This document shows positions 7,716 to 56,898 of a stretch of 64,000 nt of DNA, piece by piece. Each line of letters starts with the position of its first letter. Position 1 is the first letter of the stretch. The DNA lies in the NCBI GenBank assembly GCA_951406725.2, contig OX597816.1:100874001-100938000 (forward strand). Direction: 5' to 3'. Source of the stretch: Octopus vulgaris (lineage: Eukaryota). The notes beneath the pieces are model-generated. The model saw only the letters and a list, made by a program, of their open reading frames with translations, was not told the origin of the DNA and made no database searches. Made by a program: the position numbers and the translations under genes.

Positions 7716-8053
7716 GATGTGCTCAGCTGGGCTGCATACAAAACATTCTTAATTCCCTGTTTTACAATGATTGTTTCTGCTGTACCCACTCCCTCATTAA
7801 CATTATACCTTTAATCGCTTCTCTTTCTCATCATCCAAGCAATTTTGCTTAATCTCTCTCTTAACCACAATATCTCCCTTTATCTTTTTCTCGCAGCTGT
7901 TTTCTTCCAACTCAAAAGCAACTCAGCACACATAACCCAGTATGATTTCCTATCACTTCCAGCCTCTTTCTTTTCATTCCATCTTGTATATTGAAAGAAT
8001 GCAACTTCACTTCTCACTTCCCTGAAGAAGGACCTTTGTTTGAAATGTCAGAA
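7716..8053 (+). mobile_element. PLE pseudo-LTR-like segment, inverted relative to the adjacent remnant
   Basis: ORF 7652-7852 contains QLGCIQNILN (resembles PLE LGxxxPxGLN), followed by a pyrimidine-rich tract and an HHR motif. Confidence 0.4.
8018..8053 (+). ncRNA. Decayed type-I hammerhead ribozyme
   Basis: ttcc CTGAAGA aggac cttt gttt GAAA tg TC agaa. A few transitions, mostly at CpG, restore ggac/gtcc GAAA cg TC ggaa. Confidence 0.6.
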
Positions 8054-11000
8054 ACTCTTTAATCCACAAAACTGCATATTATATATATATATATATATAT
8101 ATATATATATATATATATATATATATACACACTCACACACACCTGCAAACATATATAGACACATGCAAACATGATATTTGTGCAATGCATGCATATGTAT
8201 GTATATAAATATATATATATATATATATATATGTAATATATTTGTACATATGTATGTATACTTATATATACATATATTTATACATATGCATGTATGCTTA
8301 TTTATATGTGTATATATATACATACATGTATGCACATACACGTATATGTATGTACACACACACACATTCACAAACATATATATAATCACTTTTACATGAA
8401 GCCTAATGCTCAGATGTATGTATTATATTTATTCTTTTGGAATGATGTTGACTATTCTGTCAATTTAAACTGCCACCTACCATCATTGTGGTCAGTAAAG
8501 CATTAACGATGTGCATTTCGAATGCATTCATGTATCTCAAAATATTTATTTTTCAGTAAATATTTAAGAAATATATCAGTAGTATCTCTTAATTTTAGAA
8601 CCTCTCTATGCATTAATTGGACAGTCCTTTGCATATTAAAATTTGTTAGATTTACTTGAAATATATTAGATGTAGCAGCTGGTTTAGATTTTTGTATTTT
8701 TCTAGTCTGGCATCAGGAAAACATTAGCACATTTGTTAATTAATGAAAGGAATTTGTCTTAAAATGTGAATGTTTTGAAATTACAGGAAACCTGTCAATT
8801 TGGGTTTCTGAAGGAATGTAGAAAATCTCTGAAAATGGAATTTTGTTACTGGATTTTTGGAGTTAAGCCTTATGGTGTGCCTTTCTCATGCCAGAGCCTG
8901 TTGATGGTTCCTTAGAATGCTGACAAATCATCTGTCAAATGAGAAATTGGAATTTGCTGCCAACTTCATATATGGTCTATGGACAGTGTTCCAAGGAATT
9001 GACTGGTCGTTAATGCACAGACAAAATGGTTGAAAAATTATTGAAATTTGAAAATTGTGGTTGTTATTTTTGTTGTTATTGTTATTAAATGTTGGTCTGA
9101 AAAAAGTTACTTATTCAACAACACATGATGTTTTTAAATTTATTTATGTCTAAAATGCTTCAGTTTTAGCCTAGTTACCAAACAATATAATATACAAAGA
9201 ATTTCATGAAAATTGAACCATTCGAAAGGAAATTGACAGACAGTAAATTTTTTTCTGTTTCATGAAAATAAAACTAAATTTATGAAAAAAAACTATTCAA
9301 ATGATAAAAATTGTTCCAATAAGTCCCAATTTACTTATCCATTAACATAAAATTCACTTTCAGTGAAAGAAAGTATAAGCAACTACTATTCAGTCAAAAA
9401 TATTTTAGATAATTATAAATTATCTACCATAAGACTTCATCATTATAGATTAACTACTAAGAATGCATGAGATTTAGTCTCCATTCTTAAATATCATGGT
9501 ATAAATACAAAGACATTCTTTCAAAACTATTAAATAAATTAATTCTTGGGAAATAGATCTGAAGAGTAAATACTTAATGTTACAATATAAAATAAAAGAA
9601 AAATGACCCTATCATTGAAATAGCAATTCTGATTTTAGGAAATCATTTTAATAGTTTCTTATAACTAACCAACTATCAACTGCATGCTTTGGGTTGTATA
9701 TAATACCAGTATCAACAAATAGCTAAATTTGTAAAACAAAAATGAAATGTTGCCCTTTCTTTGAAATCCAGTGTTGTTATTAAACTTTTTGAGTCGAAGT
9801 GACTGGATTGGGAAGGTACCTGACTACTGGCTTCCTGGAAGTTAATGTGCATCCCAAAAAGACATTGTGTTGTTTCCCAAAGCAAAACACTTCTGTCTAC
9901 TTGCAGAATCATATATTTATTACTATTGTTTCTCTTTTATATAAAACTGATGTTAATATATTTGTAATAATGATATTTATAAAAAAAACAACTTAATAGA
10001 TGTTGATGATACTGGTGAGGATAGTAGTATCATTGTAATCAAGGTATTAGCTGTAGACGTTTCCTGTAATAACTTAAATATCAGAGAAAATGTAAAATGT
10101 ATTTTACATTTTAAAATGTATTTTAAGAATCAACCTGAGAATTGCATCAAATTATAAATATTTCATCATGATTCTAACATCCGAACTCTAAGATGGTAGT
10201 GAAAATAGTTACCAACAAAACGTTGAACTAAGTTTTTTTTATGGGATCAAATTCAGTACTTCTGATTAAAAATCCCATTAAAATTAATTTTTGCCTTTCA
10301 TCTTTTTGAGTTTGATGAAATAAGCACCACTGATATAGCTCCGACCCTTAAAAAAGATGTAGCTTTGTGCCTAGTTTAAAAAAGTCAATCTTATTTAGTT
10401 TCAGAATACAGTCTTTCTTATTTTACATGTTATAGACATTTGTGTGTTAATAAATGTTGTGGGGTGGGGGATGAGATAGGTGGGTGTATGTGTGTGTGTG
10501 TGTGTGTGTCCATAATACAAATGAGTGTATGGTGTAGTGGAAGTAGTAGCAGTAGTAATAGTAGTAGTAGTAGTAGTAGTAGAAAAACATCTGGTTCTGT
10601 ACAGGGAAGTATTTGCTGTATCAGTGTTTAGGTATGAATGGGCATATTGCTAAAATGAAAAAAAGCAAGGAGAGTGACCAGTGTGAGGCATGGTTTTTAA
10701 TATACATATGAATATTCCATGAACAAGGTGGGAATCTGCTGAAAAAAAAAAATAAAATATACCTTGGACAATATTTATAATAAAATAAAAATACTAAAAA
10801 AAAATACACAACAGCTGGCTGCTTAATATGATGAAATTATGGTTGATCTCTGACTCCTTGCCACAGGTGGCACAGTCAGGGAAAAATGAACACGAGGTGT
10901 TGTAAATAATTCCTTTATATATGTGGATTTCAATAACCATGTATATATATCTTTATATATATAAATATACATGTTTGAGTGTGTGTAAATACATATATAT

Positions 11001-53910: not shown

Positions 53911-56248
53911 TGAGACAATGTCGATGGACCACTATAAGCTCCCCTGAATTTTAATATTGTAGGATAGTTTACGAATGATGCGATAGAGGCCAGTGCTTGT
54001 ATCGTGTCTGATGTTGCTCATCTGTTGCTTGTGGCAACAAGCATCAGGATTGAGACGCATCATTAGTGTGTCTACAAACATCAAGATTGAGACGGGAATG
54101 ATGGTCATTTGCTCTCCCTCTCTCTCTCCCTCTCTCCCTTTCTTTCTTCTCTCTATTTTCTGTCTTAATCTTCTCTGAGCATGGGGAAAGCTATTAATGT
54201 TGCTCCTTATACAAGTTCCATCTAGAGTATTAGCTTCGATCATTTTGTACCTGATTCACTGAGTGACACATAAAGAACTAAACAACTACTGGGATGAATA
54301 ACGTTAAAAATGTTTCAATGAAAATTAAATGAGAAAGAAACAAAAGGATATTTGAAGTTAATGACAGAAAATTCGAAGCGGTAAATGAAATTAAATTTTG
54401 TTAATTGTTTAGCTTAATAGAAAGAGGAAACCTTTCAATAAGACGTCTTACAACTATTGACGTGAATAAAAAAATATTGGAAACGAATGACAGTGAAAAT
54501 GTCACAAATGGAAACAGCTTTTAATCATGCAACGGAAATGAAATCTTTTTAATGAACAAAATTGCTGTGTTCAACGAAGAACTTTTTCGATAGAATTGGT
54601 CAATTTTGAAAGGTATATTATTTTAACTTTGCGAAAGGGTGTAGCATTTTCAGCTAGATCTATAAATAGAATCTATAGAAGCAGAATTAAGTAACTGTCC
54701 AAGAAAAGAAATAAATAATTGTGCAGCATTTACAAGATTTTGAAATTCCATTAGTTAATTTTGTGCGCATTACTTTGAATGTAGAAATGAACAAAATTAG
54801 TCTTACTTTAATAGGTATTATGAAATATTAAAAAAAAAACATGCGTTTCACTCATCGACATGGAATTTCAGTAATTTTATTCCTAAGACATGTTTAGCGT
54901 TTATCGTCATTAAACCTGAATTAAACTACATTTAACAGTTCTTATCATTATCAGGACACGACTCTTCGATTCGAGAAGAGAGGGAAAAAATTAGGCGGTA
55001 CAATCCTATGTATAATGTATGTAAGAACAAGCATACGTTTTAATTTAATCTCCCTTAATTTCCAACGTACCGCAGAATCTTCAACAGAAATTCAATTAGA
55101 TATTTAAAATATTTCCTAGTTCCATTACAAATTTTAATTTCAAGCGACTGTCTAATGCAATAAATTCAACTTCTGTAGTTACTTGTATCTTTGCCAGCCG
55201 TAATAAAACCATGGAATCTTAGAATTGTTGTACAGATGGAATTCTTTAACCGAACATGATTTTAAGACTCACTTATATCGGCACAGATAATGTTTTATTA
55301 ACTCAGAAAGGAAATTCTTCGAAAAATTGCCAAAATATTTGCTTTCGTTCGTGCTAGAATTTGCGAAGTTGTATAGACACAAAGGTTTTCTGCCAAAATG
55401 GAGTTGCCATTTGCTCTTAACTAAGAAACAATCTCGTAAAATTCTTTTAAACACCATTCAATATTGTCTCATTATAATACACTAAGAGGATATGTTGTAA
55501 GAATTTAGAAAATGCTGAAAAACGTTGGGACATTTAGGCATGATGGCTATGTTTCTTGTATCCATTCTTGAAAAATTTTCCAATTTTTTCCCTTCTGGTT
55601 TGTTATTATTACATTTGCAGACTTCACAGCATTGTGGTTGCAAATTTTCTTCACGCATTCACCAACATAAATGCCAAATTTTAATGCATAAACTTTTTCA
55701 ATTAATTATTTATTCTTCCCCTTTTCTTTTTCTGTAAGAGTATTTTATACCATCCTCACCCTTTCCATAGCTCTTCTTGCAAGGACTTTTTAAATTGGTG
55801 AGAGTCAATGGGTTTTTCTGTTCACAATCAAAATATATGACATTCAAATGTTTTCTGCTTGTTCTTTAATATATTGTTTTCCCTTATTCTATTTACCACG
55901 ATCGTCTGAAGAGGTGTAACTCATAATAGTAAGGGTATGTTAAGTTTCCAGCAGCAAGTATATATATATATATATATATATATATATATATATATATATA
56001 TATATATATATATATATATATATATATATATATATATATATATATATATATATATATATATATATATATACATATATATATATATAGGTTATGAGAGGTA
56101 ATGCTGTCAAGAAGATCCAAAGGTGTCAGGTAATGCTGAGTAAGCGCTATGGACAGATTATAGTTAAGCTCCAGGTTCGGTGATTATGCGAATGAGGAGT
56201 CCAACGTAGGTCATATATTAGCATGCATATATATAAAAATAATTAGCC

Positions 56249-56898
56249 GAATGAGATAAAAATCCAAGGCTGCGAAAGATATCAGAACATTTATAAAGAG
56301 AAGGTCTTACAGCTGCTTCCAGTATATTTTATATATCCATTCATCGGAGACAGTGCGAAAAAATGGTTAAGCAATAGTTATTCTATAGAAAACTAGCAGT
56401 ATCGCCCGGCGTTGCTCGGGTTTGTAAGGGAAATAACTATATAAGCATTTTTAGAGAGTTACTTCCCTTATATAAAACCGAGTAAAAAATGCATTAAAAA
56501 AATGAAAAAATGATGGTAAATGTTTTTTAAATCATAGACTCATCATACACGCGCGCTAATACCCAGAAGGGCTCGATATGAATCACGACTATAAGGTACC
56601 CGCTTTTGGTTAAACTGCACCACAAAATGTGGGAGTATTTAGGAATCTAAATCGGAGTAGACAGACTCTCACACACACAACTTCAGTTTTATATATAAAG
56701 ATATCCATGCATATCTCACGTCTGTTTTCATTCCTCCACTTCACTCTCTATTTCATATCTTCTATACAATAACTATTGCTTAACCATTTTCTCGCACCGT
56801 CTTTGATGAAAGGATATATAAAATATACTGGAAGCAGCTGTAAGACCTCTTTATAAATGTTCTGAAATCTTTCACAGCCTTGGATTTTTATCTCATTC
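56249..56898. mobile_element. Inverted pair of ~145-bp arms, each with a decayed hammerhead (56304-56351 minus; 56799-56846 plus)
   Basis: gtct [C/T][C/T]GATGA ... GAAG cagctg TA agac in both arms; the arms are reverse complements. Confidence 0.8.
56393..56701 (-). mobile_element. Non-autonomous Helitron (309 bp)
   Basis: Minus: A|TCtttatatataaaa...cccgagcaacgccggg hairpin...CTAG|T, no TSD. Removing it restores the host inverted arm. Confidence 0.9.

Follow-up and report, generated by a model that had tools for sequence, protein, structure and literature searches.

We analysed a 64,000-nucleotide stretch of the Octopus vulgaris genome (GenBank assembly GCA_951406725.2, contig OX597816.1, positions 100,874,001 to 100,938,000, hereafter the window). 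Sequence comparison leads us to conclude that one of its repeats, family D, carries all the core blocks of a hammerhead ribozyme in a permuted order together with four covarying helices; it is likely a self-cleaving ribozyme, predicted to act by docking between units of its RNA. A preliminary description had listed twelve minimal type-I hammerhead motifs in the window, including one at 29942(+). This type-I assignment had to be abandoned, as no CUGANGA lies 5′ of the GAAA at that site. GAAA-CGCG-UA at 29977 had been read as a type-I end; the putative U16.1 is T in 2 of 31 aligned rows and G in 24, and both T rows are the window's own copy, so that this U is private to it. The real block order, S-G-C, is non-circular, with the UH cleavage site 5′ of GAAA and CUGAUGA 3′ of it. 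The parts of the window copy are as follows.

29936..30013, + strand: whole family D motif in S-G-C order, a decayed copy
29936..29940, + strand: upstream strand U, the counterpart of stem II, pairing with the 5 nt that precede GAAA
29957..29968, + strand: block S, with stem III strand, U16.1-H17 and stem I strand; predicted cleavage after 29962
29972..29984, + strand: block G, with stem II strand, GAAA and stem III strand
30001..30013, + strand: block C, with stem I strand and CUGAUGA
29826..30240, + strand: 5′-truncated copy of the non-coding D unit, ending in (TA)n; ends approximate

A pattern fixing the core and CGCG only gave 137 matches in the genome against 0 in the reversed control, and this set holds a subfamily in which stem I changed from UUGUCC/GGACAA to UCGCC/GGCGA. 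With stem III left free, 201 matches were obtained against 0, with stem III as CGUG/CACG, CUCA/UGAG, CACA/UGUG, CGCA/UGCG or UACG/CGUA; UGCG/CGCA, CAUG/CGUG and CGUA/UACG were found later. When CUGANGA was not imposed, there were 2,418 matches (1 reversed) and the exact heptamer stood in 76 of the 100 listed, judged by eye; when GAAA was not imposed, there were 1,507 (0 reversed), with GAAA intact in 91 of the 100 listed by the same inspection. For parsing, 40 of the 100 copies listed in the 137-match search and 36 of the 100 listed in the 201-match search were fetched, picked to span subfamilies, plus 25 BLAST and 2 flank copies; this yielded 89 motifs from 87 of 101 loci (one parsed twice), 82 of them with the upstream anchor. 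UH was present in all 89 parsed motifs, as the parser demanded, and in 34 of 35 from a search that left it free. UH, stem III and stem I were found together in 34 of 35 own-genome matches but in only 1 of 135 chance foreign matches to a near-identical pattern, so the pairing is not implied by the search pattern. Metagenome and viral matches proved to be chance matches and served as these controls.

Over ten subfamily majorities, Watson-Crick pairs numbered 39 of 40 in stem III (25.4 when permuted) and 49 of 60 in stem I (35.0), whose first pair is biased by the stem III-free search pattern. The helix between strand U and the strand before GAAA (the U helix) was paired at 50 of 50 (36.8), with three positions covarying, and helix P5 at 59 of 70 (52.2), a count that allowed two registers with equal freedom in the control. 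In an independent count of 48 copies, 93.4% of positions were paired, with 72 both-side changes against 22.9 in shuffled data and 38-60% pairing in slid registers; stems I and III had both-side changes at 3 of 5 and 4 of 5 pairs, and the A15.1-U16.1 pair was found in 48 of 48. The core letters are constant across subfamilies, and only the free positions N7 and H17 vary between them. It is scarcely credible that the listed motifs, with D among them, arose by chance in AT-rich DNA full of repeats: this is true of the site at 8018, and the shuffle and reversed-pattern controls, together with the comparison of own and foreign matches, refute it for the remaining 11. We also discarded a type-II reading of D, there being no hairpin stem I between GAAA and CUGANGA, and a long rod of leader and stem III strand as the conserved fold, which fits subfamily D1 and is not kept in D4, D6 and D8 with changed stem III.

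Stem III, a GAA/AGUA internal loop (which we take to resemble a bulged-G motif) and P5 are predicted to fold into a single hairpin (-11 to -14 kcal/mol). Its loop of 18-20 nt holds UH, the stem I strand, a linker of 3-5 nt, the stem II strand and GAAA, and the partners of the loop strands, U and the CUGANGA strand, lie on either side of the hairpin base at a distance of 1-2 nt. In the hammerhead fold, stem III is directed away from stems I and II. We propose that units would be transcribed as multimers and D cut after UH (window 29962), which its sequence makes quite probable for young copies. The loop would display the cleavage site, the stem I and stem II strands and GAAA, with U and the CUGANGA strand at the base. 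With P5 formed, the roughly 19-bp arm could not bend round to its own stems I and II over linkers of 1-2 nt, so that the loop would not reach its own base and the core would assemble between two units, the loop of one docking on the base of its neighbour; given cleavage, we lean slightly towards such assembly on this reasoning. A monomer circle would thereby be protected from cutting, by the same logic as in dimers with palindromic stem III, achieved by other means. The cut units would likely be circularised and copied in more-than-unit lengths into (TA)n by the reverse transcriptase and endonuclease of a Penelope-like element (PLE).

Several points weigh against this account. The docking geometry is reasoning rather than a structural model, and U as the stem II partner breaks the link between A9 and 10.1; in the alignments known to PMC10085705, CUGANGA is separated from its stems by no more than 1-2 nt. 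The bases right after CUGANGA can form a canonical stem II of 3 bp (G-C and G.U), the covarying partner lying upstream instead. This canonical stem is weak (-2 to -2.6 kcal/mol) and without covariation, at 17 of 40 against 15.4 permuted and at 0 of 3 pairs in the 48 copies. Nested minimum free energy folds of the D majorities are mostly other structures, and transitions at CpG sites account for many of the stem III changes. The subfamilies are related and the copies were selected to span them, which makes the permutation p-values optimistic. On the supporting side, a tree built after masking the helices gave two lineages with changes arising stepwise on separate branches, its bootstrap support being unsettled. 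Among the families described below, the inverted-copy signal is weakest in D (4 on the 5′ side, 2 on the 3′ side), and no autonomous partner with a shared 3′ end was found for B, C, D, F, G or H among the fetched loci, a search that was not genome-exhaustive. The combined picture, an octopus retrozyme in thousands of copies whose permuted hammerhead with split stem II works only by loop-to-base docking, alongside a tRNA-headed short interspersed element (SINE) moved by Penelope elements, is offered as tentative.

The main competitor is cleavage in cis as an ordinary type-SGC monomer, in which P5 and the U helix would be an inhibitory fold that opens, two 16-nt linkers turn flexible, and GGG after CUGANGA gives a stem II of 3-4 bp by branch migration. 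G10.1-C11.1 with the usual extra A is kept in 10 of 10 subfamilies with 95% of cells pairing, the 3-4 nt linker between stems I and II equals that of published SGC ribozymes (PMC10085705), and inspection shows that the bases following CUGANGA can fold as a hairpin with a 3′ strand potentially able to exchange with U. Still, no covariation is seen in the GGG stem, which consists mostly of G.U pairs, in contrast to the U helix and P5, which do covary, and a hairpin of -11 to -14 kcal/mol would have to be opened. We regard the cis switch as rather doubtful and docking between units as favoured over it. It is unlikely, in our judgement, that D is a hammerhead-derived fold that no longer cuts and is kept for RNA dimerisation, protein binding or recruitment of the PLE reverse transcriptase. 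Such a loss would agree with the discontinuous stem II, with insertions that span the predicted cut site, with the deviant core CUGAUGC in aligned copies of the thriving autonomous family E, and with PLE clades that have no canonical hammerheads (PMC8557442), where cutting may be dispensable; it leaves the core letters, fixed across subfamilies while the surrounding stems change, to be explained.

Type-SGC hammerheads (HRIMA-1) were described and validated by Eckert et al. 2023 (PMC10085705) from metatranscriptomes only, with none in genomes of known organisms. D resembles them in its S-G-C order, exact core letters, short linker between stems I and II, and extra helix near the outer ends of these stems. 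It differs in being a multi-thousand-copy animal retroelement, in its covarying stem II partner upstream of block S, and in its stem III, extended into a long arm with the GAA/AGUA loop; D thus works like type-SGC at best as a variant. Together with family F, it is like the non-LTR (long terminal repeat) retrozymes (PMC7229834; bioRxiv 10.64898/2026.07.22.740005) in having non-coding head-to-tail units with one ribozyme each that are likely PLE-dependent. Those described carry type-I hammerheads, which D does not, and the copies of D and F occur as dispersed partial tandems with 5′ inversions in (TA)n. The literature search, with most subscription papers outside its coverage, returned no report of a family like D in an animal or octopus genome. 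What is new here is a hammerhead-like family that is large, covaries well and is permuted in a non-circular way; apart from family B, a second find described below, the other sites are ordinary, known biology.

Standard hammerhead descriptors, which cover types I-III only, miss a family such as D. Should D cleave, current counts of ribozymes in animal genomes are too low and non-circular permutations extend beyond environmental RNA replicons; if the docking account is true, no such permuted ribozyme would have been known from an animal genome before D, which would also represent a novel means of limiting self-cleavage to multimers. The subfamilies offer a natural covariation series and the young, near-identical tandems are directly assayable, making testable both the need for the A9-stem II link and the way in which retrozymes spare monomer circles.

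The D unit is a non-coding tandem of about 740-890 nt (about 736 nt in D1). Four young tandems have units of 824-886 nt that are 99.2-99.6% identical, with one CUGANGA each, and end in (AT)n; no long open reading frame (ORF) was found in them, the longest ATG frame being at most 125 aa. Insertions run across the predicted cut site. Contigs of four sequencing runs with four organism codes match D (window 29826-30140) at 85% likeness, which suggests that relatives probably occur in other species; none of the listed runs with D was recorded as RNA. In loci L495-L498, the ribozyme strand is strongly pyrimidine-rich outside the motif.

The other sites belong, with one exception, to repeat families that we call B, C, E, F, G and H, and are listed here with it.

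8022..8049, + strand: chance look-alike, single copy, no stem I
22597..23239, + strand: one family B insertion, inverted and direct copy inside a 13-bp target-site duplication (22597-22609, 23227-23239)
22657..22700, - strand: family B hammerhead of the inverted arm, G8 changed
22900..22971, + strand: family B tRNA-like head, A and B boxes, then (AAT)n(AAC)n
23095..23138, + strand: minimal type-I hammerhead of family B, core exact, CG as stem III
26324..26426, - strand: type-I hammerhead of family C, core exact, stem II with a long loop, CGUACG as stem III
28218..28320, + strand: family C hammerhead, core with 1 nt inserted, located 3′-terminally in an AT-rich body of >1.5 kb
30421..30460, - strand: family E hammerhead-like motif, CUGAUGC core, non-palindromic GAAC, PLE terminal repeat; rearranged fragment 30303-30720
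33541..33598, - strand: type-I hammerhead of family F, core exact, within a non-coding unit of 496 nt; the insertion spans 33390-33830 and has an inverted arm in (TA)n
34664..34758, - strand: hammerhead of a C-related family, G12 changed; exact-core relative at locus L185
36409..36498, - strand: family G type-I hammerhead, exact core; 5′ half-motif of a partial tandem at 36765-36827
56304..56351, - strand: family H hammerhead, inverted arm, damaged core
56799..56846, + strand: family H hammerhead, direct arm, damaged core

Ten of the twelve sites listed at the outset do lie in families with minimal type-I hammerheads, leaving out 29942 and 8018. The latter has one genome match and no closing stem I, and we rejected it as a ribozyme. 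The exact combination of CUGANGA, GAAA and UH, claimed for all, is present at four (23094+, 26325-, 33546-, 36409-), and six others deviate in the core: CUGAUUA at 22656-, a 1-nt insertion at 28219+, AAAA for GAAA at 34664-, GAAG at 56304- and 56799+ (also with CCGAUGA and UUGAUGA, respectively) and, common to its family, CUGAUGC at 30419-. Most individual window copies are decayed. The pairs 22656/23094, 26325/28219 and 56304/56799 are head-to-head arms, each likely one insertion, so the twelve motifs come down to 8 insertions and 1 chance match. By family majority, a clean minimal type-I hammerhead is seen in B, C, F and G; 14 of 24 copies of H carry CCGAUGA, and E has CUGAUGC. A palindromic stem III is found in B, C, F, G and H but not in E (GAAC/GCAC). 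Exact-core copies numbered 13 of 30 in B, 11 of 25 in C, 23 of 25 in F and 17 of 25 in G, and 18 of 25 in H if CCGAUGA is allowed. B, C, F, G and H thus have the C-G-S order, the core in the family majority and the palindromic stem III of type-I PLE hammerheads; E lacks A9 and the palindrome.

This type-I PLE picture of the window is already published: Cervera & de la Pena 2014 (PMC4209133) described dispersed minimal hammerhead families, read opposite-strand pairs 100-700 bp apart as truncated PLEs, and reported low in vitro activity of minimal hammerheads, even as dimers. B, C, E, F, G and H share with those metazoan hammerheads a short stem I and an extra nucleotide after A9, and the octopus set likewise has palindromic stem III, many families per genome and opposite-strand pairs a few hundred bases apart. 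The differences are not essential, apart from the A9C core and non-palindromic loop of E and the CCGAUGA of H (14/24); D is not of this type. In the giant squid, 235 Rfam hammerheads have been listed (PMC6962438). A 2026 octopus repeat annotation (PMC13282606) gives 190 PLE families, with no ribozyme term in its supplement, and its consensus library may well contain these repeats unlabelled.

Copies of the families have common 3′ ends and ragged 5′ ends. An inverted copy lies within 450 nt 5′ of the element in 16 of 30 B, 12 of 25 F, 8 of 25 H, 6 of 25 G, 5 of 25 C and 4 of 25 D loci, against 0-2 per family on the 3′ side, and (TA)5+ stands near the 3′ end in 19 (F), 18 (H), 17 (D) and 14 (C) of 25, compared with 134 of 1080 in the background. 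These features (5′ truncation, adjacent inverted copy, 3′ tail, and a microsatellite or short-duplication target), described for PLEs in PMC8557442, are weakest for D. The eight window insertions of hammerhead-bearing repeats carry Penelope-type marks.

All families other than E might be nothing more than 5′-truncated ends of long coding PLEs, in which case there would be no non-autonomous RNA families. The ragged 5′ ends throughout agree with this, C reaches at least 2.5 kb, G and H were not followed to a fixed 5′ end, and PMC4209133 reads most dispersed motifs in that way. As a general account it is improbable. In 13 of 25 loci the 496-nt non-coding unit of F shows a fixed head-to-tail junction, so that it was copied from a circle or concatemer; D forms tandems of 736-886 nt, and B has a fixed tRNA-like 5′ end, the hammerhead tail following the head in 26 of 30 copies (including the window copy and one duplicated locus). 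No continuous coding remnant was detected by a PLE profile search for B, C, D, F, G or H. Truncation is refuted for B, D and F and may still hold for C, G and H, among whose examined copies no coding remnant was recognised and whose 5′ ends are not fixed. The C body (26170-28540) has about 17% G+C. GIY-YIG matches upstream of two H copies were rejected as an H coding part, being not continuous with H.

Family B, judged by its sequence, is a tRNA-headed SINE inserted with PLE-type signatures, in which a tRNA-like head is joined through an (AAT)n(AAC)n spacer to a hammerhead module. Among 30 genomic tRNA loci of six isotypes, the head matches tRNA-Arg best (z about 8), and ARAGORN called no intact tRNA in it. 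Inverted insertions have target duplications of 8-14 bp in 16 of 17 cases (one within a TA run) versus 8 of 272 cross pairs, and the inverted arm is short of the last 29-44 nt. The 3′ end is the hammerhead module with a PLE-type tail, not a 3′ end derived from a long interspersed element (LINE) with a poly(A) or simple-repeat tail; B would be a SINE dependent on a Penelope element rather than on LINE machinery. Octopus tRNA-derived SINEs were reportedly described by Ohshima and Okada in 1994, and a tRNA-like head is found in B as well. The SINE-like hammerhead elements of schistosomes (PMC6765202) also have a tRNA-like promoter head followed by a hammerhead, and B differs in its PLE-type 5′ inversion, 29-44 nt tail, 8-14 bp duplications and absence of a poly(A) end. 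Within the coverage of the same literature search, no Penelope-mobilised SINE like B was reported. The B head starts at a short self-complementary junction with the inverted copy (22880-22905; L219, L228-L230, L233), which looks as if a cDNA end had folded back to prime the inverted arm.

The families had also been supposed to be non-coding, which agrees with the units of D and F but not with E. The latter forms a 4,588-bp head-to-tail tandem, 99.6% identical, with a single ORF of up to 1,312 aa that encodes a reverse transcriptase (RT), a Cys linker and a GIY-YIG domain at the C terminus (RVT_1 E=0.002, below the cut-off; GIY-YIG E=2e-4, just below it). At least 126 copies are 99-100% identical in protein over 314 aa, and on these sequences E is evidently a very young, expanding autonomous endonuclease-positive (EN+) PLE (L182, G000:C19:14373000-14382500). 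Penelope/Neptune/Hydra-type EN+ PLEs with C-terminal GIY-YIG (PMC8557442) have the same single ORF and domain order, tandem and inverted copies, and (TA)n targets; the relatives of E that were found are 32-56% identical and mostly unnamed. Its variant core may mean that cutting is dispensable, or the variant may be active. A second short E-end fragment without a hammerhead lies at 35990-36030 (-), beside (TA)n.

A strict type-I scan of the window gave 2 matches against 0.03-0.13 in shuffled sequence (60 shuffles per block size), and a relaxed scan gave 5 with a score of at least 18 against 0.37 +/- 0.6 (30 local shuffles), one of the five being a TA-microsatellite artefact at 12342; the expected excess over shuffled sequence was thus borne out. 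Scanned without regard to family, 323 kb of outer flanks of sampled copies contained 11 exact-core motifs (34 per Mb), one of them the partner of a queried copy, against 1 in 1,012 kb of shuffled sequence; the window contained 3. The window's motif density is not above that of the sampled flanks, of which it is typical, and a rough and biased extrapolation gives about 10^5 motifs per genome. First-look searches returned 2,840 (B), 1,938 (C), 4,522 (D), 67 (E), 2,217 (F), 773 (G) and 2,745 (H) genome sequences, which are search candidates rather than copy numbers. Nine further minimal type-I types were seen in the flanks (L042, L069, L078, L109, L119, L154, L174, L176, L179), with differing stem III sequences, palindromic or near-palindromic and at most 10 nt long; with the insertion signatures above, they agree with the proposal of PLE-type minimal hammerheads from many unrelated families. 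Among the 150 listed of 229 weak Rfam matches in the window, dominated by microsatellite-microRNA hits, there was no hammerhead, and Rfam over 22560-23260 gave neither a hammerhead nor a tRNA.

The window has 31% G+C in a 2.8-Gb genome and is rich in microsatellites, the only repeats yielded by a search within it. In the partial tandems of G (36400-36880 (-); L132-L156), the junction falls at a fixed point within the loop of stem II; in 10 of 25 loci this leaves half a hammerhead, the 5′ one, 320 nt upstream. The arms of the H insertion are split by about 310 nt of another repeat (56391-56700), presumably similar to a non-autonomous Helitron-type element. Broken open frames at 48450-49854 (+) are, we assume, akin to a hAT-type transposase.

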